Below are positions 11,952 through 64,000 of a stretch of 64,000 nt of DNA, one piece after another. Each line of letters opens with the position of its first letter. Within the stretch, counting starts at the first letter, position 1. Made by a program: the position numbers and the translations under genes. The notes under the pieces are model-generated. The model worked only from the letters and a program-made list of their open reading frames with translations, had not been told where the DNA came from and searched no databases. This stretch comes from Euglena gracilis (lineage: Eukaryota), in the NCBI GenBank assembly GCA_039621445.1, contig CP154954.1, positions 10,931,521 to 10,995,520 on the forward strand. The letters are read 5' to 3'.

Positions 11952-12044
<93 letters not shown>

Positions 12045-14265
12045 GGGGGGGGGGGTGGGGGGGGGGGGGGGGGGGGGGGGTGGGTGTTGTGATTGTGGGC
12101 CGTTTCAGTTCTAAACAAATTCTACATGAAATGTGTGGACACGATATTGTGACACACTTTTCCTGGTATATGCCTATGTACGTGGCAGCTTCCCAGTGCA
12201 GTGGGGATTTTACTCCTTCGCCATTTTACTTCATCAGCCAAATTATCAAAATTATCCCAAAAATTGAATTGTCCCAAGTGTACCAGGGGAGGTGTCTTTG
12301 AAGATCGGGGGGGGGGGGCTTCCCCCCCCCCAAGGAAAAGTGTTTTGGTGGGATGGGATCTGGTTGGCTTGTCCTCCTCCCACAGAGTGGCACTCCGGCT
12401 GACAAATGCTTCGGCTTGTCACTGAAGGCTCGGCTTTATTGTGAGGTTTTGGTTTTCAGAGTGATTTCTGCCCCCAAAAAATTTGGGTCATATCAATGGC
12501 AGCAACCTGGGTCCCTCCCCCCAAGAGTGCGCCCGCCAGAGGCTCTGATTATTTTGATTGACCCCCACCGCTTGCATTGCCGACGGGGCTACCTCAACAG
12601 TCTTGACCCATTGGGCGGGACCCGCCCTGGAGGCGATCGTGCAGTTGTAGTCGGCAGTCAGGCGGATGGGCAATGGGCTCTGGAAGGGCCGCCGCGTGAG
12701 GCGTGAGTATGGGTTGTACAGGGATGGCGGCCATCCTGGACGAGGGGAGCGCGGGCGACCAGAAGCCACCTTTGGGATGTCGCCGCAAGACACACAACAC
12801 CTTTTACTCACTGGGTTGTACCTTGTTGCCAACGCGGGCCAAATCCTGCCCGATCATCTTTGACAAACAAATGAATGCCTCGTGCAGGTGCGTTAATAAT
12901 GGTTGGGTGCAGTGACATGGTTGGCTGAATTCCCTGAGGATCGAATAGGGTGCAGGGCGTCGCTTAATTTGAAGTGGACCCCATCCCTGGGGGGGGTCCA
13001 GCCAGCCAGCTGCCTATTTCCAGCCCCGGACCCCCCTCCCCCCATTGACGAGTTTTGGTAATTTTCCAGCCGCTCTTCGGCAGGATGGTAATGGATTTTT
13101 CATTTTTGGGGTGCAAAAAAAACAAAGTCGGTCGGGGGTTTGATTTTTTTTGGTACCCGGTTCGACCCCAGGTCGGGCCCAGCTCCAGCCGGGGGATATG
13201 TAATTTGGGGCCAATTATTTGGGTTTGATATACTTCTTGTGGACTCGACTTAGCTTACCAGGTTTTTTTTGCACAGAAATTGAGGAGTGAACACCCTATT
13301 AGGGCGTCGCTTAGTGAGTCCCGGGGGGTCAAGCTCAGAGGGTGGAAAATTTGGGCCTGCTGGAAAAAGGCTGCTGGCTGACTGCCCCCCCCCCATGGGG
13401 TCCCCCCCTCAGTATTGCGGTAAAGTCCCAGGGCAGAAGGAGATAAAATCACAAAAAAATATTGCCAAAATCACGAAAATCGATGACATTTGGTCAGAAA
13501 TTGTTTCAAAAGATCATTTATTGTGCAAAAAAAAAACAACCAGAATTGCCAAAAAGGGGGCTGGTTTGCCTGATGGAGATTTTTTCCAGCCATTTTTTGA
13601 CTTTGAATTTTTTGTTGAAATTATGAACACCACCCAAATTATAAAAACCCCCCGACCCCCAGAACCTCGACTGAGTGTCCAAACATTAAATTGGGGGTTA
13701 TTTGGGTGGGGAGCTATTCCTTCCAACCCCCAGCTCTTCTCACCAAATGCAAAGTTCAAGATTTTCTTTTCGACCCACCTGATGGTCTTAATATCAAACT
13801 GCAGTTTCTATGGAGCCTGTGTGAAAGCCAAAATTTTGCAGCCATCCTTTTTTGGTCCATTTCCAGGATTGAGAAATTTAGCATTGTGTGTGAATTGTGT
13901 GTGAAAATAAAGAATTTTGGTGTCATTTTTTTATTTATTCAACCTTCGGCCTCGCCCCCCTCGGGTTCCCTTTTAGTCTGCAACCGGTCGAATGTAATCG
14001 CCAAGGGTCGCACGTGCACACACACAATTCTCCCCACACGCCTACACACACGCCACACACACACGCCACACACACCCACACCCACACCCACACCCACACC
14101 CACGCACCGACACACCGCCACACACACCCACCCCCCCCCCCCCCCGCACACCCCCAAGCTCCAGCCACCGTGGCGTGGCTAGGCAACAGTCCACCGCCCA
14201 TGATGTTTTGTTTATGTGATTAGCAGCCCAGAACACGTGCTTCCCTCCCCAGGTCCCTATCCAAC
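7720..14265 (-). CDS. Probable multi-exon host gene, uncharacterised (partial)
   Basis: Three phase-compatible GT-AG exons on the minus strand: 14265-14152 (WIGTWGGKHVFWAANHINKTSWAVDCCLATPRWLELG), 12735-12593 (WPPSLYNPYSRLTRRPFQSPLPIRLTADYNCTIASRAGPAQWVKTVE) and 11680-11635 (FATVMIDAFTGASTS). GC-rich segments near 10.9, 10.2, 9.3, 9.0 and 7.8 kb are candidate further exons whose junctions I could not resolve. Start codon not identified. Confidence 0.45.
9093..9212. mobile_element. Short MITE with internal TTTTCCGCAA repeats (relatives at about 7560-7715 and 18273-18894)
   Basis: Terminal inverted repeats CAGGGGGGAATTGATAT...ATATCAATCCCCCC; flanks GTGGCTGG/GGGGCTGG match 7/8, like an 8-bp hAT-type target duplication. 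Confidence 0.7.
11954..12084 (+). repeat. ~130-bp poly-G tract
   Basis: Near-pure G run with a few T interruptions. Confidence 0.95.
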
Positions 14266-45871: not shown

Positions 45872-46085
45872 CGATGTTTTTTTTGGCCTCCCAGACCCCC
45901 TACCTACCTACCTACCGACCTAGGATGTTTTTTGGTCTTCCGGACCCGGAAAACATGTTTCTGAGCCGAAAATGGGCGTTTTTTTTTAACCCCCCAGAAC
46001 CCCGTTTTTTGGCCCGAAACCCTCGGTGTTTGGGTCAAAAAAGTGGGGGACAGCGCCAATTTTTTTGGCCTCCCAGACCGGAATC
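45872..46085 (-). repeat. Inverted, diverged fragment of the ~160-bp sub-repeat of the 1-7 kb array
   Basis: CCGGACCCGGAAAACATGTTTCTGAGCCGAAAATGGGCGTTTTT and TTGGCCCGAAACC are reverse complements of array motifs (e.g. 2409-2500). Confidence 0.8.
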
Positions 46086-46462
46086 GGACTCCCACGACAG
46101 AGGAAGGGGGGGGGAACCAAGACGGCTGGTGAGTGAGGTCCTGCTTTCTTTGCCGGCTGCTCTGTTCTGGTGTGTTTGTGCGTGCGCGGGGGGTGCCTCT
46201 TACTGCTTTGTTTGTTTCCGGAGTTGGCCGCTTGCTAATTCTGCCCTTCGACCTCAAGAAGAAAGGATTTTACTTCTACGAGTTCAAGTGGGATTATTTT
46301 CGAATGAGCACTACATTCACGAAGACCAGTACTTTATCAACTAGTGGACCGGACTTTTTCGGACCTTCAAATTCCTGGAGGACGAATTCAACTCTTCGAG
46401 TTCAACTGGAATTATTCCCAGGGGCATTGCACTTACTAAAACAAGATCAACAACTGGACTTA

Positions 46463-47158
46463 CTGTCATAGGAAAAAATAACATCCTGAAAAAATAACAT
46501 CTGGAAAAAATAAACTCTGAATAAATAACATCCAGAGAGGCTTGTAAAAAGGCACTTAAAGGTTATCTAGTTCCAGCGCTTCAGTCACCCGGACTGCGCC
46601 ATTGTTTAGTTGGAGGGAGTGCAAGGCATTGCAAAAAAAACTGGAGCGCACACCAGACATTTACCTACACCCCCCCACGAGTCATTGCCAGCTTCCCCCC
46701 CCAAGGACCCCCACAGGACAGGGTCCTGGGGGGGGGACTGGCCATAAATGCCCCCCACACACCCCACACTTGACCAGTTTAGGCTTAAGGCAGGTGGGAG
46801 GGTCAGACTCCCCCCCCCGATCCAGGAGGGGGGATCGGGCATATATTGCAATAATTGGGTGATCCCAACACAAACAAATAGCATCTGGTGAGAGTATCCA
46901 GAGCATAACCCATGAAACGGTCCATTCTTTACTTCAAAAAGGCAAGGATTGAATGCAAGCCTGATGGACAGCCTCGTCCTTTGGTAATGATTGTCACAGT
47001 CGTTCGTGTTCTTCATCCCACATCCTATCCACTTTATACATCTTATCTATTTTCGACTTATTTCTGGAGCAAATGAATAAAAAATAACATCTGACTAAAT
47101 AACATCTAAAAGCGGCTTAGATGTTATTTTTTACTGATGTTATTTTTTCCTATGACAG
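46463..47158. mobile_element. TA-flanked MITE (Tc1/mariner-type termini)
   Basis: Perfect 23-bp TIR CTGTCATAGGAAAAAATAACATC / GATGTTATTTTTTCCTATGACAG, TA on both sides, subterminal AAATAACATC repeats. Confidence 0.9.
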
Positions 47159-47764
47159 TACATAAAGAATGAATCTCAAAAAAAATCAGACTGCCAAGAA
47201 GAGCTTCAAAGAACTTCCAAGAAGGCAGCTGAAGCCGGGGAAGGTGGAGACACACAAGCAGCTGAATTTCAAAACCTCCCACTCAACATGATAATCGCCA
47301 TGGACCATGGACAACTGTGGTCAGGAAGACAAGAAGACAGAGGGGAAATACCATCACAGGTCCAACAAACTCCCCCCCTCTTTCTATGTCCCCCCCTTCC
47401 AGGGTACAAGGCAAGGGTTATGGCAGCCTTTCAACAAATATCAAAAATACAAGGGATTCAAGTCACCATCAAGGCTATGGCAGCCATCATCCAAAAGGAC
47501 CTGGGGTACAGATTCAAGGCTATGGCAGCCATCATTCAAGAGGGCAGTGGGCCCAGGGGCAAGGCTATGGCAGCCAGTACCCCTGCCTGGAGCCTGGAAA
47601 CATTTCATTCGGGAAAGGTATGTCCAACTTTCCCCCCAGCAATTTCAGAGACAAACCCCCCGGAAGCAGCAGCCCAATGCCAAAAACAGGCCATGGTGGC
47701 CTATATGGGGAATCAAGAGGGACAGAGAAGAGACAAGAGAAGTTCTGGAGAGAAGGCCAGTGGC

Positions 47765-48958
47765 CACCTTCCTGTATGACATGAATTTTTGGGTCACAAA
47801 TTTGCCCGATTCTTTTCTGACTGCTTTTAATTTGTAAGAGAGGATTTGGAGCAGTTCTTTTTCCAAGTCCAAAAAAACCCCAAATGTTCCACGTGCTGAC
47901 TGGGGGAGGTGTTTGACTTCTTGAGATTTACGGTCATCCCACTTCCTCTGAGGTCCTGTAGTAAAGTTTCTGTGTGCTGGGTTGCCAGACTTTTTGACTT
48001 GGCTAGTAAGAGGATGTCGTCCAGATAGACAAAAACAATCAACCCCTGTCTTCTCCACTTTTTGAGAAACACTTGCATAACCTGCATCCAGAGATATGGA
48101 ATGGTTGAGAGGCCAAAACAAGCCCCATCCATTCGAAAAACTTATGTCCTGTTTTCATACGAATGTAAGGTTTTATGACTCGGGACAGCTCCAGATGTAA
48201 GTAAGCATATTTCAAGTCAACTTTTGTGGCCCACATTCCTTTTTCCAGATGAGGAAAAGTGTCTCTCCCATGGTCCAGTTTAAAGTGAGGAGGGTTTAGG
48301 TGCAGATTTATTGCCCCGCAGTCTGAGATCAGTCTCAGTTTTTGTCACACCCTGGATCTTCTTTCTTTATGACAAACCAAGGTAAAAGGAAGGCTGTCCC
48401 TTCTTCTTGAATTTCCTTTGCTGCCACCACCAGGCTTGTGCTTAGTCGGGTGCCTAGGGGGTGCTAGGGGCAGGAACCCCAGAGCAACCAATCCGACCCC
48501 CCCCCCTTGGGGGTAGGGTTTTGGGGAGTGCCTGCCCGTGGCAGGCACCCCCCTCAGACCCCGGCGCCGAAGGCGCCGGGGGCCCGGAAAATGCCATTTT
48601 CAATGAAAATTTTCTGGGTCCCCCCCGGACCCCTATCCTCCCGGGGGGGGGGTGTCTGCCAGGGGCTGGCACCCTATAGCACCCACCCAACCTCCCCCCG
48701 CCACGGTTGGTAAGCACCAGCATAGTCCCCACCTTGAAATAATCGTCCATGACTTCTGGAGCCGTCCTGATTTCTTCTGGGGTTTTTCTTTTCATGTTTG
48801 GGGGGAATCAGTACCTGAGGGAACTGTGGTTCCACCCCCTCCCAGATTAGCTTTTGAACGAACTGGGGTGCACGCTTTTTACACCACTGGTGACACATTC
48901 TGAGCCTGTTGAAAGGACTGAGCTCCTGCAAGGGGTCTTGGACCTCTTGTCCGGACAT
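47765..48958 (-). pseudogene. Decayed reverse transcriptase of a DIRS-like (tyrosine-recombinase) retrotransposon
   Basis: Frameshifted pieces in order: LLPWFVIKKE, KLRLISDC, WATKVDLKYAYLHL, CFGLSTIPYLW, VFVYLDDILLLA, GMTVNLKKS..PSQHVEHLGF. The style matches DIRS/Ngaro RTs. No RNase H, methylase or recombinase is visible, so the superfamily is inferred. Confidence 0.75.
48431..48724. mobile_element. hAT-like MITE inserted in the DIRS-like RT
   Basis: TIR CAGGCTTGTGCTTA / TAAGCACCAGCATA (11/14), flanks GCCACCAC/GTCCCCAC (6/8). Removal approximately rejoins DDYFKVG to AAKEIQEEGTAFLLPWFV. Confidence 0.7.
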
Positions 48959-49665
48959 GGCCGCTGTGGCCCTGAGAAATAGTGTACGTCCCCTGACTCT
49001 ATTCCCACTGCCTGTCGGCCTACTTACACCCTCCCGTGGGAACAGAACCAGGAGAGTAACAAAAAAAGAAAGTCTTTCACTTAAATATTACTTTTTATTG
49101 CCTTTGGGCTTATGCAAACCAGGTGTGATTTTGGAACTTCTGTTCCACAATTGTTCTCCAATCGGAGTGTCGAAATCGAAGTTGCCTTTGATCCGGCAAA
49201 TGAAATCATGAATGAAATAATACCACCTGTGAAGGGAAAGGCAGATCCGAGATAGGATAGGCCATTCCTAATTCTGCAATTTGTGTTGCAGAACATGGGA
49301 TAGTACTATCTAACATGACATTGTACATTCTGCAGGCTGCTGCTATGCACAGTGCCATGTTCATGCTGCCTGGTACACATCCCCCTCCCAGGGCTTTGCC
49401 CGATTTCCTTACTGGACCAGGCCAGCAAGGATTCAAGCAGTGCTCTGAGACTGAGGAACGTACACCAGGACCGCATGTCTTGGGTCTGCTTCTCCATCAC
49501 AAGGTCAAAAACCAGAAACGGAAGGAAGAGAGGGGAACCCAAAAACCCAAAACGCGCAAAAGAGGTTATCCGCTTATGCGGTTACCTTCTTATTGCGGTA
49601 AAGGGGTGGAAGTGTAAGAGCCCATTGGAAAACGGGGCTGGAAGGTTTCCATTCCAGAAAGTCCC

Positions 49666-49896
49666 TGTTCCCACCCATCAGAAGCCCTTTTGTTTCAAAA
49701 CGACTTTTCCGCAAAACGGCGAAACAGCCGTTTAGTCGTCAGCAAAACGGCAAAAAAGCCGTTTCGCCATTGGCAAAACGGCAAAAAAGCCGTTTCGCCG
49801 TTGGCAAAACGGCGAAAAAGCCGTTTTGCCAGCCAAAAGTGGGGAAAACGGCAAAAAAGCCGAAAAGCCGAAATGAAACACATACGGGTGGGAACA
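49666..49896. mobile_element. Short MITE with internal AAAACGGC(A/G)AAAAAGCCGTTT hairpin repeats
   Basis: TIR TGTTCCCACCC / GGGTGGGAACA enclosing 3-4 tandem ~31-bp units. Confidence 0.7.
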
Positions 49897-49923
49897 CCAT
49901 CCACCCGGTTTGGGGTGTGTCTA

Positions 49924-50782
49924 TGACACGCGGGGAGGTCTCATTCCATAATCGGAAAAGATTGAAGGGTAGGGTGTGGAAGGGGGGGGGGCACCTGGCC
50001 AGTCATATCTGACCAGGGAGAAAGACCTATTTACAAAACCAACTGCCGGCGACAGCGATGTTTTGCCCAGGGGGGTAAAGGGGAGAGGAGTGGGGGGCTG
50101 GTCTAAAGACCTTACAAAGAATTTTTGCTGTCTGGCAGTCTTATGGGGGCCTTAAGGCCGAAAAGTAACAAGTTGAGGCTATTATTGCGGTGTGCGCGCT
50201 GTACGCTGTGTGTCTTCTTACTGGCGGAATATACCGCTAGTGAGGGCTTCACAGTGCTGCGCGGACCCGCCGTCGGCGATGGGGTATCCCCAGAGGCTTA
50301 TACCTCAGAATAGCAGGCAGTAGCCCTAAAAACTGTAGATTTGACAGTTGTGCCTTGGGTGTGCAGCCTGTGTGCTGAAGGGTTGGCATTAACCAAAAAT
50401 AATGGGGGGCAGGCTTTATCGCCCACAAAAATTGCCTTGCGGAACATGCATGGCACAAAAGTACTACTGGGTGTATTGTGTACCAGGCGTATGCTTCTGT
50501 CCCCTTCCGTTGAGGAAGTTAGGATGGAAGCAGATCCTATTAGGATTTCCTAATGGGTGCCCCTTCTCTCTCCACAGGTGGTATTCTGTTTGTCTTTCCT
50601 TTTCTCCGGACCGGACTTGGTTATCCAGTCCGTCCTCCCTGCATTGCTCCGTGCTTTGCTTCTTGGGAAGTGGGAAAAGGGTTTTCACTGTTACTCTGAT
50701 TTTCAGTTCCCAAGTAGGTGCGCCAAGGCGAAAGCGAAGGCTTTTGGGAATTGGGAAAGGGGAATTGGGAATCAGACGTACA
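49924..50782 (+). repeat. Putative 5' LTR (about 860 bp)
   Basis: Non-coding stretch ending in CA 2 nt before the first PBS; the TG start (49916, 49918 or 49924) is uncertain. Confidence 0.55.
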
Positions 50783-50784
50783 CT

Positions 50785-50941
50785 TGGTAGCAGATTGGTT
50801 ACGATCCTACACATACTTCACAAACAGAAACGCTATCAAGTATTACACTTGGTAGCAGATTAGGTCACGATCCTACACATACAACCCATACAGAAAGAAA
50901 GGCTACCAGGTATTACACTTGGTAGCAGATTGGTTCGATCC
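50785..50941 (+). promoter_or_regulatory. Three tandem primer-binding sites complementary to initiator tRNA-Met
   Basis: TGGTAGCAGA at 50785, 50850 and 50920, each preceded by TACACT and followed by (T/A)GGT..CGATCC. This is the complement of the 3' end (UCUGCUACCA) and T arm (GGAUCG) of AGCAGAG-type eukaryotic tRNA-iMet. Confidence 0.85.
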
Positions 50942-51133
50942 TACGCTGACTGGCAGCGGAGAGCCCCTGCACCATTATTACACGGTCGCAGCGTCAGCTC
51001 CCGGCTTCTAGTCAACGTCTAAGCAGACGAGCAGGCTCCGGAAGGCTCTGTACGGTATTACCCGTTACAGCCCCTCTGGTGCCAGCACAACTGCTTAGTT
51101 TTGTCGGTTTTTGCTGTTTTTGTCATCAGAAAG

Positions 51134-54100
51134 ATGCAAAGCACAGGCCCCAACCATCAATTCAATTATGCCTTATTACAGGCATCATTGCAAGACATTG
51201 ACCAGGAAAATGGGGATTGGAAGCTTTTATGTGAAAGTGCTTCCAGTTCCCACGCCGATGAGGCACAATTGATTCAATTGTCACAATTGCAACACTTGTC
51301 ATCATTGACAGTGGTCGGCGATGAGCCCTCCACATCATTGGCTTCAGAGGCTAATGCGGCCTCTTCCGCACTCACCTTGCCACAACGGGGGTATTCGCCT
51401 CTGTCTGCGGCAATGGTGCAGCTGCACACACCGGAGAGACCCGTGGTGATTCCGCCACCGGGCTTCTCTGGTGGTGGTGGGCTAGAAACCCCGTGTTTCT
51501 TTCAACCCCCACCGGCTCTTCCACCGGCAAGCCCTTACGGAGCTTTGCCACCACCCCCCGATATCGGGTGCTATCCCGCACTACCTTGGCAACCGGAGAC
51601 TCGCCTCGTGGTGCCGGAATTCTCCGGTACATCCCAACCCATGGATGACTATGGGAAGGGCACTGGTGAGCTCCTCACTGCTGAGGATGTGCAGGATATT
51701 GTTGCTCGGCTTCCAGGGGATCACCCCCTTGTGAGGCAGTTCAATCATGTGCAACAATGCGTTGCAGAGTGTGCAACCGCATTGAACAAAGTGCTTCAAT
51801 TTGATGAGGACAACCAGAAACATGTCTTCACCAAGCTGGAACACTGCTGGAATTACTTGCAGGAAGTTGGCAGATATTGCCAGAGGAATTTCGAAAGTGC
51901 GGGTATTGACCTTGCAAACTTTCGGGAAACCTTTGACAGAATATGCCAACAGCTCCCGCAAAACTTCCGGCAAATTAATGAATGCATGCATGAAGCGGAA
52001 ACGCGGAATGACTCCAAGTTTCTGCACTTGCATGGATCACTACAACAGTTATCGGGACAAATGGAGTCCTGTTCATCTGCGTTGTTGCATTTGCAACAAC
52101 AGTTGCATGCACGAGATTCCTCGTCTGCAACATCCAGCAGTTGTGGATTTGTGTCTATGGACCATTTCACCACATTGTCTGCAACTTTCCATGAATCGCA
52201 ACACCGCATTATGCAGTTGTGCGATGAAACGGAAAAGTTTCGGCACTTCCGGTCACAAGCCAACGAGAATTTTGCTCCCCACACGTATGTGCGGCAGTTG
52301 GAGGAGCGACTTTCCCGTTTGGAGCAGAAAACCTGCTATTGTGACGGGAATAGGGTTGGATTATCCAATCTGAGCGCGAAAGTCGCAGAAATGGCACAAC
52401 GGCAGGATTCCCTGCAGTTGCAGTTGCAATCCGACATTGGCGGGATTAACTCGGCCATTGCGGGTTTGCAACAAAGCTATTCCGCACTTTCCCACCGAGT
52501 TCCGGACATTAGCGGTGTTCAGACTGCTATTGGAGAACTCCAGACCCGGTATGCATCGGTGTCTACCAAAGTAACGGAAATGCAGTCTCTACCTGCAGGT
52601 TCCAGTTCTCGAATTACCGAGAACCCTGATTTCAAGGCATTTTATGACAAAATGCTCACTAACAATCAGGAAACCTTGCAAGATTTCTGCAACAGCCTAT
52701 TACGGCTTGAGGAATCGGTGAATCGGAATGCCCGATCCACGCAAAGTGATATTACCAGGTTGGATGAGCGAATTTCCGCGTTGGTGGATAAGCCACAACC
52801 CAGAAATTTGCCCGTGGGTACCACGACCGCGTTCTCGGATAACCCTGCACCGGTTGCACCCACCACCACACCAACCAAGGTAACATCACCTTTGCAGATT
52901 CTCTCAAATGCTGTAAAAGCATTAATGGGACAACTCCAATTATTGGATAAGTCTCACGGGAAACTTGTCCAAGATGTTACCGGAATTTCCGAAAGGATTC
53001 CGCACTTGGATGACTTTTCCCGTTACCGCAAGTGTATTCGCGCTTTGGAGGATGAAGTTGACCGTATTTGCGGCCAACTCCAACTCGTTGAGCATTTGGA
53101 GCAAAGTGTGCATGACTTGTCTGTGGGTTTGGATAATGTGTCCAACCAATAGCGGGTTTCACACCGAAATTCGGCAGTATGCATTGCCGATGATGCGCCA
53201 AATGTTCCAGAGTCGCGTTTTCATAACCCGGCTCTGGGTGCACATGCACCACCACCACCCGTGTCCCGAGTGTCACAATCCGCGATTCCGCGAATTGTGC
53301 CACCATTGGCCTTGTCCACAACCCAAACCCAGTTTTCGGATGAATCTCCCATTACGGGAACCGAATTCGCGGAAAACATGGCGATTCTGCCAAGTCTCCA
53401 CCAAGAAATCCATCATTCCATGCTTGTGCGTGGAATGAGCCAAACCCGTACACCGGGAGTGGGTCACATGTTGCATGCGCGACATACCCCCACACCGGAG
53501 AGTCTCCCTATTACGGGTGACCAACAGGGTTTGCGACCGGATTTCCGGTACCAGGATTCACCTTCACCAGAAATTTCGCGATTCCGACAAGAATCCGGAA
53601 AGGATACGCTTGGTGCTCGAGCGTACCCAGGCCCGAATCCACGGAATACCACCGAGGGCCAACGGGTTTTTCAGAAAGACTTCAAGGGCACCATCGCAAT
53701 CGCGAACAAGGTGAAACCCCAGTGGGATGGTGATCCAACCACATGGAGACAGTTTTTCCGGGACTAGGAGTACTACTGGGCATTGAAAGGGACAACCCAG
53801 GACACAAACCCGGAGGTGATCAAGATGGAATTCATCGATTGCCTCCCTAGGGATGAAAAGGAGCGCGCGCGACAACTCGTCATTCGCTACCGCGTTTCCT
53901 TTGATGACCTGGTGGAGCAATATGCTTCCACCAGTTCAAGTTTGGTCGCTAGGATTACCCTGGAGACCAAGTGGCGGCAATGCGCCCCACCCGATCGCAA
54001 GTGGAAGTCCATTGACCTTTGGTATGCCAAATGGTTAGGACTTGCCGCTGAAGTGGATGAACTCAGTGAAAAGCAAATGCGCGAACAGTTCGACGCTGTT

Positions 54101-55111
54101 CTCATGCATTTCACGCCTAGCCTCATCAAGGATATCCATCGTGAGGAGTTGGCGGGTAATGCAATGACTCTTGACCAACGCTGGAACTACGTTTCCAAGC
54201 AATTGAAGCTATCACAGCTTCTTGGTCAGATTCAATCCGCGTATACCGCACACCCAACCGCTGGATTACCGGCTGGTTCGGTGAACGCAGTGCAAAAATC
54301 ACCGGTTCCACCCGCTTCACCCACCACGGGATCGAAAACGCGATAGCCGCGTTCTTCGGACCAAGCCACGGATAAAGTGTGCTTTTTGTGCAACAAATCG
54401 GGACATATGTCTCGGGAATGTCCTAATCCTGAAGCGCGAAAGCGTATTCAGAGTCCGCGAGGCTCGACCTCATCACGAGGTTCGGGTTCCTCCGCGTTTT
54501 CACGCCAATCGGGCAATTCACGGTCATCGGGTCCCCGTTCCGGTGGTATTAGCCCCCGGATCCCGTTCCGCGATGAGCGGAAACACGGTACCCCTCGGGG
54601 TAGGTCACCCGATGCCCCGGCCAAGACGCGTGATTCTCATCGCGAGACATCGCGATCGCGTTCGCGAAGCGGATCATCTTCTTCGCGATCCTCATCGGGA
54701 AAACCCCGATACACCGGTCATGGTCGACGGGACACCCGGTCACCACGACGGTCTGACGGGAAATCGGGAAACCGATCCCCCCGTTACCAAGAATCGCGAC
54801 CCAAATCTCGGTGTTCGCTTTGTGGATCGAGTGATCACCACTCATCCAAATGTCCGCGTTCTCGTTCTCCCCGCCCTGGCCAACGTCATCGCGGTATGAA
54901 TCGCGGTGACAAGGGTCACTCCTCCAACCGCCATAAAGTCGGTTTCAAGATATCTTGTTTGGAGGATGACACCCCGGCTTCGGGCAGGGAGGGGGATGAG
55001 ACCACGGATACCGATTTCGACGAGGCCCGCATGGCGGTGCGCACGTTGAAATCCGTTTATACCTCTAAAAGGCCCATAGCCGGCTATTCGGCCGGTTCGG
55101 ACCTGGAGTAG
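51134..55111 (+). pseudogene. gag: Gag (about 1325 codons): long coiled-coil N-terminus, capsid-like region, two zinc knuckles, RS-rich linker; 3 internal TAG
   Basis: ORFs 51101, 53261, 53783 and 54377 share one frame, split by TAG at 53150, 53765 and 54344. Motifs: PQWDGDPTTWRQFFRD*EYYW, CFLCNKSGHMSREC (54380-54421), CSLCGSSDHHSSKC (54812-54853). Confidence 0.85.
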
Positions 55112-58100
55112 GGGAGCCCGAGGTCCGAGGGCACGGACCTCTGGGCTGATGAACAGATGGAGGTAGGACCTGATCAACCCTGCCCCCCCTGCCCATCTGC
55201 CTTTCTGGTCGGTACCCGGAAAATTTTCGGGTCCCCCACCCCCCACTCCAACTTTCCGCTCGGAATGTTGTGCAAAGTAGGAAAGGGTTCATGGGAAAGC
55301 TGGCAAGAAAATGTATTTTCGCCAGGCCCTTCACTTTGCTTACCCCCCATGGAACTTTTGGTCCAAGCGGAAATCAAAATACAAAATTTTTGTGCAAAAG
55401 TCAAAATTCTCATTGACACTGGTTGTCGCATTGCACTACTTTTTCGGTTTGGGTTGATACCAACCCCCCTCTTGGTGAAAGCCAAGAAGCCGATCAAAAT
55501 TACGACGGCTGACAACACCCCTATGTGCGGTGGTGACTTGGGATGCTTTTTGGACATTGTCCTACCCCTCATCCCCAAGCACCACTCACACCCCCCCCAA
55601 CCGCAAAATTTTCCGGATACCTGGGGATATGAATCCGGAATCCATGGTTCTGACGTAATTCTGGGATACCCCTTTTTACGTCAGCACCGGCTGGTAGTGG
55701 ATTGCCACTCCCACGGTTTGCGCACATCACCATTCTCCTCATTGCCCCCCAAACCCTCATCACCTGTGGCGTCAACCGCGATAGCCACCAATTTTTCCAC
55801 ACCGTTTTCGAAAACTTTCACCCCGTTACCAACCACACCAACCAACGTTTTCCACACCGGGTGTACCGAGAAAGTTCACCCCCTGCCCATTGACACACCA
55901 ACGTCCGTTCCCCATGAGGCAGGGCAAGCGAGTAGCGGTACCCCCCTCGTTCCACTGGGTTACAAGACGAAAGCTCAAAGGCCTGAAGTTATAACGGTGT
56001 CGAGTAGTCGCCCAGCTGCACTAATACCCCGTTTTCCACCAGATGTATCGCTTTCAGATACATCTGTATACCCCCCAGCAGCTTCAAAAGCGCATCCCAA
56101 CTTTTACACACACCCCCACCAGACCAACATGCGCGACCAGGACCACTACTCCGACACTACCTTCCAATGTGTGCACTGAAGGAGAATTTCCGCCCAGCCA
56201 GATTTCGATTGTGGATGTCTAGTCCAAACACCAACACTAATCCCGATTTCGCGTAACCATACACTTGGTTGCGGATCGCAATGCGCGACCGTACATCAAG
56301 TGCTCCAACAACGAGGTATTGCCTTGTTGTTTGGGACCGCGAAATCCGTGTCACACACCTCCCCCACCTCCATCTGGCATGATATGGACTGGGTATGTAC
56401 CCATCCAACCCATCAACCCTTGGGAATGCCCCTTGGGAGTGTGGATGACACACCCTTGACCTATGTTTGCGGATCCCTGAATTGCGTTACCGCTCTTCAA
56501 CCCGCGAACCAGGTCGACACCTACGCGATGCGCGTATGGAACGCATTTAATTTTGGTCAATACCGTATTTTGGAGGAATGGTTCTCCAAAATCGCGGCTT
56601 TGGCTGATTCCTTCGATTTGCCGTTGGAAATTGATGCGTTCTCATCAAAAGCGCATGCGCGCTTGTCGCGATATTGGTCGCGACATACCAACGCATTCCG
56701 TAAAATTTGGGGTGATACGGTGCTATGGATGCACCCTCCCCCAAAACTTATTTCGGATGTGGTGGAGAAAATCCTCCGCGATGAAGCGCGAGGAGCTCTC
56801 TTCATACTGGTCAATCCGAATGCGGATTGGTTTCACCAACTATCCTATGTGTGTTTTCATTGGTGGGATTTACCCGCTGATGTACCACTATTTGAGGATT
56901 TTTGTGGTATATTATTACCACCTGTCAAAGAAATCATTTTTCGCGTTTGTTTCTTCGACGCATTCGGAATATCCGATTTGCGTGTGCCAAGATACCTTGG
57001 TACGGATGGGGATGCCACACCCTCAACGCAGATTTCTGCGGTCATTGAGAGTGCGGACCAACATCCCAAGTCTTCTGATTATTGTTCGCGAATTGCTCGC
57101 GAATTCCATGGTGTACTGGATAACCCAGTTTACGCCTGCGACATCGACCCCGCGATTCGCGGTCCGTTCGGTGTTTGCAAAATCGAGCTCAAGGATGGCG
57201 CTAAACCTATGCACCGGAAATTCTTCCGTTGCTCGGGTGAATGCGAACAGGCTCTCAACGAGATGATTGAGAAGCTCATCCAGCGGAAGTGGATTATCCC
57301 TTCCAAGAGCGAGTGGACATCACAAGCTTTTGTGGTGCCCAAACCCGCTGACCAGTCTGGTCAGAAGAAGTGGAGACTGGTGCTGGATTACCGGTACCTG
57401 AACTCCCAAACAAAGGATGACCCCTTCCCGTTACCGCTGATCGAGGATTTGATCACAAAACAATCGGATAACCGGTTGTGGTCAATCTTTGATCTGGAAG
57501 ACGGTTTCCATCAGATGCATTTGCATCCTGATTCGCAACCGTACACGGCATTCGTGACATCCAAGGGTGTGTACCAATGGACGGTACTCCCCATGGGTGT
57601 TAAGAATGGCCCAGCCATGTTTCAACGCATGATCCAGTGGGTTTTGCGCGATTTACCGTTTGCTATGGTGTACATCGATGATGTACTGGTGGGAACCCAA
57701 CCGCCATCCGCGAAATCGGGCGAGGATATCCTCGACCCGCATTATCGCGATGTGCGCGCGGTATTATCCGCGTTCTAAAAGCATGTGCTTTTTGTGAAGG
57801 GTTCCAAAATGCACCTGTTTCGCAAAATTATTAAGTTTTGCGGACACATCCTGAGCAACGGGCAGCGTAAAGCCGCACGCAGTAAGATGGAGGCCATTAA
57901 GAAATGGACTCCTGAGGTCATTAAGACCTTAACGCATTTAAAGGGATTTTTGGGATTAGCCCAGTACTACGCGATTTACATGAAAGATTTCGCGAAAATC
58001 GCGGTACCCCTAACCCGACAACTCAAAAATCGGACACCCGATAACGCAAAAGTCATTTGGGATGACCAAATGCGCGAGGCCTTGAATAAAATCAAGGACT

Positions 58101-58620
58101 TGCTCCTCGAGAACGTGGTTCTCGATATCGCGGATCCATACAAACCGTATGTCCTGGAGGTCGACAGCAGCGATTACGCTGTTGGCGGGGTTCTTAGCCA
58201 GCATAATGCGGCGAATGAACTCCGACCTGTGGCTTTCTTTAGCAGGAAGCTACAGGGCGACAACGGGAAGCGTTCACGGATTATCAGCTCTGCTGCAGAA
58301 AGCAGTCCGCAATTCCGCGCCCGAGTAGCTGCGCAAGGGAGGCCGACAAGGGATAGGACAGGGTTAAATGGGCATTCGCGAAAAGGAGAACTATGCCATT
58401 GTTGTTAATTCTCAGAAAGAAAGTCGCAGGGATAGCCAGCCAGCCTGGCCAGATACTGCGTGGTGGCGGATCCCATGGAGCCTTCACACTGGTTCCCGAG
58501 GACCTGAACAAGGCCATGTCATCAGTGGGCAGAAGATGCCGATAGCATGAGTTCTTGAGCCAGTTTAACCTGGTGGTAGTTTATACCCCAGGTCATACGC
58601 AAAAAGTTGCCCCCTGGTAT
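55112..58620 (+). pseudogene. pol: Pol part 1: aspartic protease, Dam-like methyltransferase, reverse transcriptase, RNase H
   Basis: Same frame as gag to about 58270, with stops at 56177 (TGA) and 57776 (TAA). Motifs: ILIDTGC (55415) and DVILGYPFL; KWRLVLDYRYLN, IFDLEDGFHQM, LPMGVKNGPAMFQ, YIDD (57671); LEVDSSDYAVGGVLSQ, PVAFFSRKL. Indel-scrambled IREKENYAIV and HEFLSQFNLVVVYTPG follow. Confidence 0.92.
56561..56960 (+). other. DNA N6-adenine methyltransferase-like (Dam/DIRS-MT type) domain inside pol
   Basis: YRILEEWF..IDAFSSKAHARLSRYWS..NAFRKIW..VLWMHPPPKLISDVVEKILRDEARGALFIL..ADWFHQL matches the IDxFAS / DAF..W / xPP / I..V..K / W...L pattern of phage Dam and DIRS methylase domains. Recognised by eye only. 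Confidence 0.75.
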
Positions 58621-58850
58621 TATCCTGGGAACCCGGATGAGGGTGATGCGACTTTTCATGGCAGCCATGAGGCTGACCAGTTCGCACGTCGATCCGACGC
58701 TGCGGACAACATGCTCGATTCACTACCGGTTTCCCGGGTGTATCGCAGCATCGCCATTTCACCATTGCGTGGAAGGCGCCGGCGTGGACGCACTGCCGGA
58801 CCCCGTCGCATTACGCGTACGGAAACTCCTACCCCCCTATTTTTCCGCGA

Positions 58851-60302
58851 ATGGGTTATTCGCGTGACCCTATATATAGTACCATTGTGAATAGACGTAG
58901 TAATGGTGAATCCATAGAGAGTTACTCTCTATCACCATTGCGGCTTATTTTCCGGAATGATTCTGGTTATAAATATTGTATACCCCAAGACCTGGTTGAT
59001 GATGTGATTTTGAGCTATCACAACCATGGTCACCCTGGGGCCCCCAAACTTCTTTCACTAGTGGGTCGCAGATATTGCACAACCCTGAGTGAAAAAGAAT
59101 TATATTCGCGCTGTTTGCGAATTTCGCAACGGTGCCAAAATTGTCAGGCTGTAAAACCGCGCAGAGGTACCCCCCCTGGTACGATGGACTTTTTCCCCGT
59201 ACCACCTGACATTTTTACGTCCCTCTGCATGGATTTTCTCGAACTTGAACCTTGCAAAGGATCAGATGACAAAATTTACGATTACGTTTTTGTTGTCGTC
59301 TGTCGGCTGAGTGGGTACATAGTAGCCATTCCATGCCGGAAAGCAGGGTTGACAGCCCAAATTTTGGCATCCATATTCCTGGAGAAATGCATCTGCTTAA
59401 TGGGTTTACCGAACGAAATCGTGAGTGATCAAGATCACTTGATCTCTTCGCGGTTTTTCACAACTTTGTGCGGTTTACTCGGCATTGAGCAGCATTTTTC
59501 CATTATATACCGCCCGAAAGGCAATGGTAGGGCCGAGGCAGCCGTGAAATCCGTTGTCAATATGCTTCGCCTTTCACTGGCTGACTCGGGTAAGAATTGG
59601 TTATCCGTTCTTCATTGTATTTTTTACATCAATACCTTGCCAGGGTTGGTATTACCACACTCACCGTACAAAATTGTTTTCGGACGTGACCCTCCGGCCA
59701 TAGGGGATATCCCCTCGGAGAGACCCGCCCGAAGTAGCGTCAGCTGTGAAACGTGGTTTGCAGAAGTGGAATCACTCCGCTCTGCAGTCCAATCACGTAT
59801 CACAGAAATTCATTCCAACAAACGGAAATCGTTTTTGCAGAACTTCAACACACCTGTGTATAGTCCAGGTGACCGCGTGTGGGTACGGAATAACCGCACC
59901 CGCATGCAATCTTCCAAGCTAGATCCTCTTTGGCTCGGCCCATGCGAAATTTTGGAGAGGTTAGGTAGTAGCGGGCGATATAAAGTTGCCTTGCCCAACG
60001 GGATTGAGGACGTCCATATGGACGACTTCAAACCGTACCTAAGCCCCCCAGACGGAAAAGCTATCCCCTGCCTATATTTCAAGCCCCGTTCCAGATTACC
60101 TGAAACGGACGACTTTGTGGTCGATAAGATAATAGACCACAAGGTCGACAGGGGTGTGCACTACTGGAAAGTTCGCTGGAAAGGGTATGGGCCAGAGGAG
60201 GACACTTGGGAGCCAGCATCCAGTTTTGTTGGATATGTCCAACAGGATTGGAAGCTGTGGAACAAGCGCAATAACATAGACATAAACATAAACACTTTCT
60301 GA
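58851..60302 (+). CDS. pol: Pol part 2: integrase (HHCC, DDE, GPY/F) with C-terminal chromodomain
   Basis: [32 protein letters not shown] and LWLGPCEI. Chromodomain [32 protein letters not shown] at 60114-60227. Separated from upstream pol by frameshifts. Confidence 0.93.
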
Positions 60303-60356
60303 AACGATTTCGTTTTGGAGAATGCGTGTGTTTTATGTGAATGTTTCGCGTTTATA

Positions 60357-60396
60357 CCCCCCCCTGCACTTCATTATTTCTCTATCTTTCTCGCAG
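60357..60396 (+). promoter_or_regulatory. Splice acceptor (cis or SL trans) upstream of the extra ORF
   Basis: Polypyrimidine tract CTTCATTATTTCTCTATCTTTCTCGCAG; the first ATG after it is the ORF start at 60498. Confidence 0.6.
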
Positions 60397-60497
60397 AGTT
60401 TTGATTAAGATAGAAGCCTTGCTTTTTCAGTGCTCTCGCACTCAAAGCGACTGACAACAAGGTTACCCTTAGTTGTCGTCGTCGTTCGGGTAGCATC

Positions 60498-63400
60498 ATG
60501 CTGCCTGGGCGCGGACCTGGACCAGGTCCACCATGGCCGCAGCCTTCTGGCGCGCCATACCCCCAGTACCCTCAGTATGCTGAGGCCCCGATTCCGGGTG
60601 CCCCACATGCTGAGAGGGTTTCAGCCCCGGTATTCGCCGCGGCTACCAGCAGCCGGTCCGCATATGCGGTACCAGATCCATCTGCCGTCCAGCAGCCGGC
60701 ACCTCAGCCACCAGCGCAGCGCAGATCGCGCCTGCCCCCGTATGCGGGAGAGATGATCTTCCGCACTACGGAGACGTTGGAGCGGGCGATGCGTATGTGC
60801 GCACACCCCCCAACGGAGCCCTTTATGCAAGCCCTTTGGGATGCATACTGTGCTCAGTTGTTGGTGGTAGCCAACACCCCTGTGGCTCAGTGGTGTCCCT
60901 GCGGTCAAGCCCTGATGACAGGGAGACGGTATTTCTCGTCGGCATCCGATTCCGGATTCGAGCCGGGTGAGACTATGATGGACCTGGGCGTGTATGTGCC
61001 GCCCATGCTGCAAACGCAGACGCCGGTGGGATCCCACACCGTGCATATGCGTGAGCACACGCCCCCACCGGTAGGTGAGGCTGTGCATGTCCCACCTGGG
61101 ATGACGAGAAGTTTTGCTCGCCCGCCCTCGCCGCAGCGAATGCCGCCGCGCGAGCCGCCAGCGGAGCAATTTGTCTCGCGGTACGCGACGCACGCGGATT
61201 CCCCGCGCGGCGCACGCGTGCTCCCAGCCGGACAGTCGGACGTGCCCTCGGAGGCATACGTCCAACACATGTTCATGCACTGGATGCCACAGGCATCACC
61301 GGTCGTCCCTGTCCCGGGCGTTGAGCCACGGCGGCAAGTGGAGCCCATAGTGGTGGAGGATGAACCTCCCCGCCATGCTGCAACTCGACCGCCCAGTGCA
61401 CCTCCTGTCCAACCCGGGGATGTCCCGCGTCGGCAGGACGCTCCCTACTACCACATGGCACCTCCGGGAACCGAGCAGGATGAGCTTGCTCGGCATTTCC
61501 TGCAGGAGCCAGTATTCACGTCTGAAGAGCATCAGGCGAGGTATTACTCCTCGCTGGCCGCCCTTCAGGGCCGTGGATACACCCCGTACCATCCGTACCA
61601 ACCGCAGCTGCGGGTGGCGACCCCGGTATTACCCGGTGAGCCCCCGGCAGGAGCGGCAGGATTACCTGCCACCCTGAAGCGCGATAGGGTTACGGAGAAC
61701 CTTACCCCACAGCCCAGGCGACCCAGCCCACGGGACGCGGAAGGCGGTGTGGCAATGCAGGTGGAAGCCAGCCCGGATACCCCGGCTGGGCAACCACCGG
61801 CAGTGGCACAGGCAGCGATGAGCCGTCCTGTTGCCGCAATGCCACCGCCGATCCCTCCGGTATGGAAGGAGCCGCGACCCCCTACGCCGACATCAAGCCC
61901 ACGCCAGGCTCCTAGCCAGCGCGCAGCCACGCCGTCACCGCGACGTGCAGCGGAACGGCAAGGTCCCTCCCCAGAGATGGAATGGGAAGGTACCGAACCG
62001 CCTCCTGCCGCACCGAGCGCCCGACCCTCTGGTATTCGCCAGACAGGGAAGGATAAAGGTAAGGCTGAGGGCAAAGTCAAGGGAGAAGGCAAAGGCGTGG
62101 CCGGCAAAGGTAAGGCTGAGGGCAAGGGTAAAGGTACAGCCCGTGAGGAGGAGGAAGAACCAGCAGAAGTCCTCTCGGACTTTGAGCAAATGCTCAGATT
62201 CAAGGAGGAGCTGGAGGACGAAGGCTGGCGAATGCAGCATGATTACCATGTTGCAGGAAACCGCCCCGTCACCCCTCCGGAAGCAGTCATCGAGGTGGTA
62301 TTACACCACACCGAGAACAGAGTCAGACAATTCCATTACGGAATTGACCTGTACGCCTTCGAAGGTGAAGGTGGCAGACCCTTGCTGGATGCCCAGCCGG
62401 GTTTCTGGGAACTCTGGTTTTGGCTGGGATACCCCTGCCAGAACTGGGGTCTCTTCAGCGACTCCACTGGCCGCAGTTACCTGCACCAGTTAGGATTTCG
62501 GGACCAGCATGTGTTGGCCCGAAGGCTGAAGGCAATCTTCGACTGTATTCACACAGTCGGGCCCCTCGGTGTGCAGTGGAAATACTACCCACTGAACCCC
62601 GACATCGAACGCCTGATCGAGGTGTTGTGGTGCAACAACCTCCAGGTGTGGCTGGTGAGCCATTACGGCTCCACCTTCCGCGTTAAGCGCGTTTCCCTGG
62701 CTTACCCACAGAGGTATGACCTCTGTTGTAAGTATTGCCGGCAGGAGTTTCCTGTCGACTTCTGGTGATTCGGCGTACGCGGAAGTCCTCCACCGCCTCG
62801 GGATAACCCGGGACTGGAGATGGGACGCCGCATGCTTATGCATGTGTGCCGCGACGCCCCGGATGTCCAGGGCAAAAGTCGCCGCGTCCATAAGCAGCGT
62901 ATTTTTATGCTGCAACAGTTCTGGTGGCGAGCCTGAACGACCTATGTCATGGAGGTGTATATACATCTCCGTGACCCCCAGGACGATAGGCCTGGTATGG
63001 AAAGCTTGCCACCAGACTACGGCGACCCCGTTGAGGGACCTCGTCGTCGTCGCGTTATCGCCGACCTGCGCCCCAACTGGCACCTGGCCGGGATAGACCT
63101 GGAGGAACATTTGAGGCGACAGTTTGGCGGTACCCTCGACAGGAAGGTATTCCTCCAGCTGATGAATCACCCGAAGGCCATCCTCGACCTGGGTATGCCG
63201 ATTCTGGCATGCGTGCAGGAGTTCGAGGACGGGTTTTTCGAGGTCTGGGAGGACACGCGTTACCGCAGCTTCCTGGGCCCGAACAGGCCTGCCAACGCTT
63301 GGGTGCAGCCATCATGGCCACCACCCTGGCCCAACAGCGCCAGTAGCAGTACGCTGGTCTTTTACAGGCTGGCGGATGCCCAGGGATGCCGATGGCACCC

Positions 63401-64000
63401 CGACGACCCTCGTTCGCCGGAGGATCTGCGCGCCTTCATCGCCCCAGAGGATGAACCTCTGGCGCGAAGGAGACGTGAGGCGTCAGTCGCTTCCACCACT
63501 GCGATTCCGCGGCGGGAGGAACGCGACCGCAGCCCCTCCGTCACCATACTGGAGGCAGCGCCGCCGTCTCCGACAGGAACGGCTGTATCATTCGTCTCTG
63601 CCCCGCGAGCGGCAGGGGAACGATCGGTTTCCCCGGCCCCCGCGACGGCTCACGTCTGTCCACCGGTAGGTGGAGACCAGGAACTTCCTGAGGAGGAAGG
63701 TGAGAACGTGGAGGATATCCTCTACGCTGCTCTGCATGCTCCGGCACAGCCTAGGCCAGACACAGCACCCGCAGGGGATATACCTGTGGATGCTACGCCT
63801 GTTCCAACGGCTGAGCCTCCAGTCGAGGTGACTGGTATGGTCGTCGAGGATATCCTCGAAGAACCTGCCAGTCCCACAGCACGCACCTCGTTAGGAGGCC
63901 GTGTGCTCGGCGCCGTGGTCACTGGCATTACTGCCGTGGCTGCTGCACTAACGCCACGAGGTGGAGGCGTAGCATCAAGCTCCGCCGCTGAGGTCGTGGA
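60498..64000 (+). CDS. Extra sense ORF3 of unknown function, >1160 codons, two internal TGA, open at the window end
   Basis: The 756-aa ORF continues in the same frame past TGA 62766 and TGA 62934 (..GIDLEEHLRRQFGGTLDRKVFLQLMNHPKAILDLGMPILACVQEFEDGFFEVWEDTRY..) to 64000. It is intron-free, unlike host genes. Pro-rich flanks, GKGKAEG repeats, and a Trp/Tyr-rich globular core with CCKYC...HVC. Confidence 0.75.

Follow-up and report, generated by a model that had tools for sequence, protein, structure and literature searches.

The DNA analysed here, called the window below, is a stretch of 64,000 nucleotides from Euglena gracilis (contig CP154954.1, positions 10,931,521 to 10,995,520 of the forward strand). 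A single dead copy of a Ty3/gypsy retrotransposon, of chromovirus type and from a very high-copy family, occupies its + strand from 50779 to beyond 64000. Downstream of the pol gene of this element, after a spacer of 195 bases (60303-60497), begins a further long open reading frame (ORF) in the sense direction, which we call ORF3. At least for its core, ORF3 is a protein-coding gene, and we consider it quite probable that it is the third gene of the retroelement family, lying between pol and a 3' long terminal repeat (LTR) beyond the window. The element is laid out as follows; E is the expectation value of the Pfam match.

50779..50944, + strand: tandem repeat resembling a primer binding site (PBS), 2.5 copies of a unit of 66-70 bases (Tandem Repeats Finder: period 70, 83% matches)
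51023..53149, + strand: first long stretch of the gag-side frame, 709 codons from stop to stop; Pfam matches only sub-threshold and of coiled-coil type
54377..54427, + strand: CCHC zinc knuckle of gag (nucleocapsid), PF00098, E 9.1e-07, above the curated cut-off
57338..57733, + strand: reverse transcriptase (RT), PF00078, E 2.4e-23
58058..58273, + strand: RNase H of RT, PF17919, E 2.4e-19
58980..59162, + strand: H2C2 zinc-binding domain of integrase, PF17921, E 5.8e-07
59223..59516, + strand: catalytic core of integrase, PF00665, E 4.5e-08
59868..60023, + strand: Tf2-type SH3 domain at the integrase C-terminus, PF24626, E 5.9e-07, 29.9 bits against a cut-off of 30 (just below)
60114..60224, + strand: chromodomain at the integrase C-terminus, PF00385, E 3.3e-10, 40.2 bits against a cut-off of 25.1
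60300..60302, + strand: pol stop codon TGA, from reading the frame
60357..60396, + strand: pyrimidine-rich tract ending in CAG (60394-60396), candidate splice acceptor in the spacer
60498..64000, + strand: ORF3, from the ATG at 60498, at least 1167 codons (to 63998), open at the window end, with two in-frame TGA codons
62766..62768, + strand: first in-frame TGA of ORF3, private to this copy
62934..62936, + strand: second in-frame TGA of ORF3; the protein relative P0002 has a residue at the aligned column

Coding evidence and linkage of ORF3 to pol

Is ORF3 a gene, or has a long frame stayed open by chance in GC-rich, low-complexity repeat DNA? The other five frames of 60498-64000 contain 14 to 39 stops, compared with two in ORF3. 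In 1000 mononucleotide shuffles the best of the six frames held 26.6 stops on average, with a minimum of 16. For codon positions 1, 2 and 3 the content of guanine plus cytosine (GC) is 0.70, 0.54 and 0.64; six of the seven 501-base bins of ORF3 have their maximum at position 1, and in the remaining bin position 3 is higher. In favour of chance, long frames are commoner at 60% GC, antisense frames of 212-273 codons are also present here, and about half of ORF3 is of low complexity. But the shuffles never reached fewer than 16 stops, the antisense frames across ORF3 match no Pfam family, and the core of ORF3 is matched by six database proteins, one of them at 30% identity and almost gap-free. 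An origin by chance is scarcely credible, and for the core of ORF3 it is already contradicted. A previous reading made from the letters alone, the sequence-only reading, had described a sense frame of more than 1160 codons, with two TGA codons and an open end, starting about 195 bp past the pol stop. The measured spacer is exactly that long, and the 1167 codons found include the TGAs at 62766 and 62934.

ORF3 and the integrase share a reading frame, and are separated by TGA 60300, TGA 60402 and TAG 60411. Readthrough from the integrase into ORF3 was considered and rejected: three stops, one of them a TAG, intervene, and in sibling copies the spacer carries indels of 1-3 bases, as expected for non-coding sequence. 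Nor is ORF3 a diverged second gag or pol, since blastp of ORF3 against the upstream frames gave a best E of only 0.051.

Does ORF3 accompany pol in other copies of the element? We aligned the contigs of four public runs (X1, X15, X16 and X17, labelled as four different organisms or samples) to 57000-64000 at a likeness of at least 85%. X1 is a DNA run; X17 is an RNA library from leaf litter, which may also hold DNA. What is said below of individual contigs and joints concerns the 32 contigs listed among 43,393 and the 15 joints listed among 135. X1 supplied 42,915 contigs: 12,604 at a likeness of at least 99%, 15,281 at 95-99%, 11,334 at 90-95% and 3,696 below 90%. This spread points to a very abundant family of mixed age. 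The summed contig depth of X1, which is not a copy number, stays within one order throughout, at 0.39-2.26 million per bin in pol, 0.74 million in the bin of the spacer and 0.86 million in the last bin. Contig 30 of X17 (2402 bases) extends over 59828-62241 in one unspliced piece with 125 differing letters; the indels listed for this copy measure 1-3 bases within the spacer, and inside ORF3 a single one is listed, of 9 bases. In X16, contig 19 covers 59559-60486 and overlaps contig 20 (60438-60901), while a contig of X15 runs from the integrase into the spacer (59525-60387). The sequence-only reading had assigned the frame to the retroelement, and this assignment stands: the pol-ORF3 junction is present in other copies in all four runs, and ORF3 is a third sense-strand coding ORF physically linked to pol in the family.

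Where, then, is the 3' LTR? Within the window no second LTR was found, either by a repeat search or by blastn of 46000-51100 against 51101-64000, which returned nothing beyond 20-23 bases at E 0.19. Since the upstream, LTR-side sequence does not recur anywhere in 51101-64000, no 3' LTR precedes ORF3, and the 3' end of the element lies beyond 64000. The purine runs of 11-15 bases within ORF3 adjoin no LTR. By blastn, no other copy of the element is present in 1-49999.

Several observations weigh against ORF3 as the third gene of the family. Its end, the polypurine tract and the 3' LTR fall outside the window, and a position inside the LTR pair is not directly visible. Among the contigs listed, only one bridges the whole spacer, those of X1 being 311-544 bases long. 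The step in whole-sequence GC from 0.50 to 0.60 at 60000 would also fit two different repeats that adjoin. Sibling copies in X1, X15 and X17 diverge upstream of about 62400, where their contigs have loose ends, and the protein relative P0003 (also P0008) departs from the ORF3 protein just after the start of the core. Together these two divergences indicate that ORF3 is not uniform across the family.

Might two repeats simply lie side by side? The GC-rich ORF would then derive from another high-copy repeat, such as a second transposon or a gene family resembling a satellite, joined to the chromovirus 3' end in an ancestor; the chimera would have been copied thereafter, and ORF3 would not be a working gene of the retroelement. 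The GC step, which falls right at the end of pol, the higher third-position GC of ORF3 compared with gag-pol, and the fact that neither a 3' LTR nor a polypurine tract is seen within the window all agree with such a fusion, as do joints of X1 near the junction, with skips of 2470, 434 and 110 bases, and one that goes back. However, copies that differ by about 5% retain the junction, as do four runs labelled as different organisms or samples. The depth has no step at the junction and the indels of the spacer are small only. The frame of ORF3 is kept in the diverged X17 copy, where the 9-base indel is the sole one listed. Moreover, a chimera copied many thousands of times with pol is effectively part of the element. 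We give little credence to two juxtaposed repeats, and continue to regard ORF3 as the third gene of the family.

A recurrent breakpoint was observed inside ORF3 at about 62360-62400: up to about 62396-62400, contigs of X1, X15 and X17 differ in sequence from this copy. It seems that some subfamilies have another segment here, or an inserted one.

From where might ORF3 have come? Its third-position GC is 0.64, compared with 0.51-0.54 for gag-pol. This difference, together with the GC jump at 60000, suggests that the gene was acquired from elsewhere, from the host or from another element, and was then fixed in the family. In the flanking 10001-50000 the ratio of observed to expected CpG is 0.51-0.66, against 0.95 for gag-pol and 0.86 for ORF3. 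Either the element is younger than its CpG-depleted surroundings or it is treated differently from them.

The gag-pol region, its decay and its surroundings

On the + strand the Pfam families succeed one another in the order zf-CCHC, RVT_1, RT_RNaseH_2, Integrase_H2C2, rve, SH3_Tf2-1 and Chromo. This order of domains (CCHC, RT, RNase H, integrase, SH3, chromodomain), together with the PBS-like tandem repeat, identifies the element as a Ty3/gypsy element of the chromovirus type. The chromodomain ends 76 bases upstream of the pol stop. The gag-side frame spans 51023-58405 and ends at the TAA at 58406; inside it are in-frame stops at 53150, 53765, 54344 and 55109 (all TAG), at 56177 (TGA) and at 57776 (TAA). 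After the RNase H this frame is lost, with stops from 58406 on, and the integrase stands in another frame, from 58677 to the TGA at 60300. No Pfam family of aspartic proteases was detected on 55112-57340 of this degraded copy, even at E <= 1.

At the 5' side, each unit of the tandem repeat at 50779-50944 contains a PBS-like stretch starting TGG and the final bases of the presumed LTR end. We take this stretch to resemble the complement of the 3' end of the initiator tRNA-Met; Rfam gave no match on 50700-51000. The repeat probably marks where the 5' LTR ends and the internal region begins. A multiplied PBS region of this kind is unusual.

The gag side is very long, with about 1360 codons (51023-55108, + strand) before and around the CCHC knuckle. 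Besides ORF3, the element may hold a further N-terminal module in this part. Pfam aligns the pol frame at 56594-56788 (+ strand), between the gag/protease side and RT, with the Dam N6-adenine DNA methyltransferase family (PF05869), below the cut-off of 28.1 bits (21.5-22.2 bits; E 1.3e-04 to 2e-04). An HPPP in this segment stands where such methyltransferases presumably have their (D/N)PPY motif. The segment could be a decayed or captured methyltransferase-like module, or a match by chance.

What do the stops say of the history of this copy? At 62766, the first letter of the first TGA of ORF3, the siblings differ in 660,510 of 662,185 of the depth in X1, and in all of it in X15, X16 and X17, which makes the codon a sense codon; the protein relatives P0004, P0006 and P0007 have a residue at this column. 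The sequence-only reading had proposed to look for sense codons in siblings at both TGA sites. At 62766 nearly all of the sibling depth is sense; for 62934 the evidence is the residue in the protein relative P0002. Both stops are private lesions of this copy, the second of them on the strength of the P0002 protein alignment. Of the gag-pol stops, at least the one at 57776 likewise differs in part of the sibling copies. In all, gag-pol has seven stops (six within the frame, the seventh being its end at 58406) and the frame break over 9.3 kilobases (kb), and ORF3 has two stops over 3.5 kb; the density of lesions is similar in the two, as it should be if they decayed together. A variant code in which TGA is read as sense was rejected: the gag-pol stops mix TAG, TAA and TGA, and the siblings differ at the first TGA of ORF3. 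Because of this mixture of stop types and the difference from the siblings, we take the stops to be the lesions of one old copy.

At 58269-58609 (+ strand) the majority of the siblings, in each of the four runs, diverge from the copy described here. Among the sibling contigs listed there are joints from 58269 to 58355, 58372 and 58375, and loose ends at 58269 and 58609. These departures coincide with the frame break between RNase H and integrase, which indicates that this copy has been rearranged or replaced there.

As for the remainder of the window, a 31-base tandem repeat (49711-49830, + strand; 3.9 copies, 88% matches) is situated just upstream of the presumed end of the 5' LTR. Tracts resembling G homopolymers, about 100 bases long or more with an occasional C or T, occur at 6955-7100 and 11940-12090, and 1-7100 is filled with dense families of repeats of 160-400 bases. 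No tRNA and no Rfam family was found anywhere in the window, and its six other long ORFs match no Pfam family.

The ORF3 protein and its relatives

The ORF3 protein consists of a proline-rich part (residues 1-560, 18% proline), a core at about residues 570-1000, and a tail (1001-1167) rich in Ala, Pro, Val and Glu. Four of its features matter below.

62046..62159, + strand: low-complexity stretch rich in Lys, Gly and Glu (residues 517-554), just before the core; kept in relatives P0003 and P0008
62337..62786, + strand: conserved domain of about 150 residues, aromatic-rich, ending in a CxxC and a DFW motif; common to the distant relative P0006
62727..62849, + strand: candidate zinc site, with CKYC at 62727-62738 and HVC at 62841-62849
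63894..63950, + strand: borderline hydrophobic segment (residues 1133-1151), rich in Gly, Ala and Val; Kyte-Doolittle mean over 19 residues 1.6, the maximum of the protein

To which proteins is the core related? A HMMER/phmmer search with its 431 residues, in the ORF3 frame only, against 1.84 billion representative proteins returned six at E <= 1e-3, none of them named, at 30-64% identity. Five of these are short fragments on contigs of 1.1-1.4 kb (42-64% identity). The sixth, P0006, has 332 residues, is encoded on an unrelated metagenome contig of 2043 bases, and was found at E 6.7e-08. Aligned to ORF3 by BLASTP, P0006 is 30% identical over 151 residues with 3 gap positions (pairwise E 5e-15). 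Pfam has no match for the whole of ORF3, its parts or the six relatives. A profile search of the sequences in PDB found no match to ORF3, and a search of the ESM Atlas with two pieces of ORF3 found none either. Searches of protein databases by word index gave nothing at near lengths and P0003 only at shorter lengths, and with a profile P0006 and P0007 only. There was no match among JGI metagenome contigs queried with a piece of the core and with P0006, nor among the viral contigs of IMG/VR and prokaryote genomes. By these sequence comparisons, the ORF3 protein belongs to no described family.

The sequence-only reading had pointed to a possible CxxC..HxC site in the core, and both halves are present, with CKYC at residue 744 and HVC at 782. 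Three relatives that cover the CxxC, namely P0004, P0006 and P0007, retain it, and in P0004 and P0006 a His/Cys pair follows it at varying distance. The Cys/His core probably binds zinc. The conserved domain is flanked by long proline-rich and acidic stretches, which look disordered. Two motifs resembling late domains, PSAP at residue 299 and PPDY at residue 838, are likely to be due to chance because the protein is 18% proline. In the AlphaFold2 model of P0006, residues 130-215 alone reach block means of 51-73 for the predicted local distance difference test (pLDDT); they are modelled as a hairpin, a helix and a three-stranded sheet up to the CxxC.

Could ORF3 be an envelope gene? It would then encode a membrane protein anchored near its C-terminus and give the element a retrovirus-like stage of passage from cell to cell. 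It follows pol in the sense direction behind a candidate acceptor, as in env-carrying gypsy elements, and its hydrophobicity peaks at residues 1133-1151 with a mean of 1.6. On the other hand, Pro, Gly and Gln abound in the first 100 residues, and the six most hydrophobic 19-residue windows of the hydropathy scan (means of 0.77 and above) all lie outside this part. A hydrophobic signal is lacking at the N-terminus, and apart from the peak of 1.6 the means do not exceed 1.08. Pfam finds no viral glycoprotein or fusion family in ORF3, and the search of the PDB sequences was likewise empty. Half of the protein is proline-rich low complexity, and the hydrophobic segment is Gly/Ala-rich and borderline. 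An envelope-like function seems to us very improbable. The sequence-only reading had found neither a signal peptide nor a clear transmembrane segment; it was right about the N-terminus, and overlooked the borderline stretch at residues 1133-1151. This segment, 16 codons before the end of the window, could be a membrane anchor, which would weaken the description of ORF3 as non-envelope. On sequence grounds, ORF3 is not env-like at its N-terminus and may have an anchor at its C-terminus.

We picture ORF3 as a non-envelope accessory protein. Its core, which probably binds zinc, would hold on to nucleic acid or to a protein of the host, and its long arms of low complexity might serve as flexible scaffolds in the particle or in the nuclear stage of the element. 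This accessory role is doubtful as yet. The AlphaFold2 models are poor, with a mean pLDDT of 36.5 for the core and 44.9 for P0006. A wide fold search with the P0006 model gave only matches to single long helices (Z <= 4.8), and the proposed function finds no supporting match in any database. It would go further to say that the core represents an old, undescribed Cys/His protein family that travels with retroelements in distant eukaryotes and acts as a non-envelope accessory factor. The relative P0006, at 30% identity, comes from an unrelated metagenome contig. We rate the idea as unlikely.

Expression of ORF3 and comparison with known elements

If ORF3 is not read through from the integrase, how might it be expressed? 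A gene that starts 195 bases past pol needs its own mRNA, and with an acceptor-like site in the spacer, ordinary splicing would be the simplest route. In env-carrying gypsy elements and in retroviruses the third gene is expressed from a spliced subgenomic mRNA. The strong polypyrimidine-AG that the sequence-only reading had placed upstream of the frame is there: 32 of the 41 bases of 60357-60397 are pyrimidines, and the tract ends with the CAG at 60394-60396. When an acceptor-like site is defined as at least 20 pyrimidines in 25 bases followed by YAG, the + strand of the window has 22, and 60394-60396 is the sole one in 50000-64000. In intact copies ORF3 would be translated from a subgenomic mRNA in which a leader donor is cis-spliced to this site.

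We hold the cis-splicing route as a tentative proposal. At 22 sites per 64 kb, about 1 in 15 spacers of 195 bases would contain an acceptor-like site by chance. The single contig from the RNA library that crosses 60396 (X17) is unspliced, in a library that may hold DNA; none of the joints listed falls at 60396/60397, and no donor was identified. Among the loose ends listed, none in any run is at 60396/60397 (1207 further ones are outside the list); contigs cannot show the 5' ends or starts of RNA.

In the version raised by the sequence-only reading, the acceptor-like site would receive the spliced leader (SL) of the host at 60396, giving a capped monocistronic mRNA of ORF3. SL trans-splicing shares the acceptor-like site with the cis route, and no leader donor could be named for it. 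Nothing points to trans-splicing by the host, and Rfam sees no RNA family in the window. A piece of 15 bases of the dinoflagellate leader matches once with 2 mismatches, as it does in 33 of 100 shuffles. This is no better than chance, and a dinoflagellate host was rejected for want of support. Together with the lack of a loose end at 60396/60397 among those listed, this makes SL trans-splicing highly improbable and less likely than cis-splicing.

How does the element compare with known systems? Chromoviruses, for example Tcn1, MAGGY and Skipper, are Ty3/gypsy elements with a chromodomain at the integrase's C-terminal end. Our element is like them in the order of its domains: CCHC gag, RT, RNase H, H2C2 and core of integrase, Tf2-type SH3 and a canonical Pfam chromodomain; its family is also high-copy. 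Skipper is described with two ORFs (PMC5006619), and chromoviruses of Selaginella with a single ORF or with short extra ORFs of about 310 bases (PMC3350952). In the present element, by contrast, the chromodomain is followed by another ORF, of at least 3.5 kb, and the gag side (51023-55108) is very long.

The env-carrying Ty3/gypsy elements (the errantiviruses of Drosophila and their metazoan relatives) and the retroviruses share with it a third sense ORF after pol, and the candidate acceptor just before ORF3 suggests a spliced subgenomic mRNA. But ORF3 has neither a signal peptide nor a match to a fusion glycoprotein, and its hydrophobic segment is only borderline; the pol of this element carries a chromodomain. 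Env genes occur in elements of errantivirus type (PMC13524379). The LTR elements of bdelloid rotifers have captured unrelated non-env third ORFs (Rodriguez, Kenefick and Arkhipova 2017, PMC5408684), among them a GDSL esterase, a DEDDy exonuclease and a paramyxovirus-like fusion protein. Those ORF3s are described as belonging to recognisable families and reside in transposon-poor hosts, whereas here no family matches and the element is extremely abundant.

In plants, the Ty3/gypsy lineages Retand, Grande, RIRE2, Ogre and Tat carry additional ORFs (aORFs; Vicient 2025, PMC11963269). The long region between pol and the 3' LTR, with a conserved ORF of unknown function in most copies, is common to them and to the element described here. 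These lineages are not chromoviruses, and their ORFs between pol and the 3' LTR are antisense with a TRP28 domain; here the ORF is in sense orientation after a chromodomain and has no Pfam match on either strand. Ty3/gypsy elements of orchids have captured an N6-methyladenosine (m6A) demethylase domain (PMC9289625). They too are a Ty3/gypsy family that fixed an extra protein domain, a known enzymatic one, unlike the orphan protein of ORF3, in which no enzyme family is detectable. A search of full-text literature (main texts in open journals) returned no passage describing a large sense ORF after a chromodomain. Extra ORFs in LTR retrotransposons are already known; this case stands apart in three respects: its pol bears a chromodomain, the ORF is in sense orientation and at least 3.5 kb long, and the protein belongs to no known family.

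What would a third gene mean for such an element? On present evidence ORF3 is one more case of a known phenomenon, in a copy that is dead. It is by extra genes that retrotransposons gain new lifestyles; with env, some of them became viruses. A new accessory function may be suspected for a third gene that has stayed with a chromodomain element over many thousands of copies, and whose core domain is moreover conserved at 30% identity in a distant relative. With a protein of no known family, ORF3 offers a clean way to ask what, beyond gag and pol, a very successful retroelement requires. If the proposal of an old family were true, ORF3 would be a factor such as a nucleic-acid or chromatin adaptor, blunting the silencing by the host or steering integration together with the chromodomain. 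Such a role would help to explain how the family reached tens of thousands of copies.

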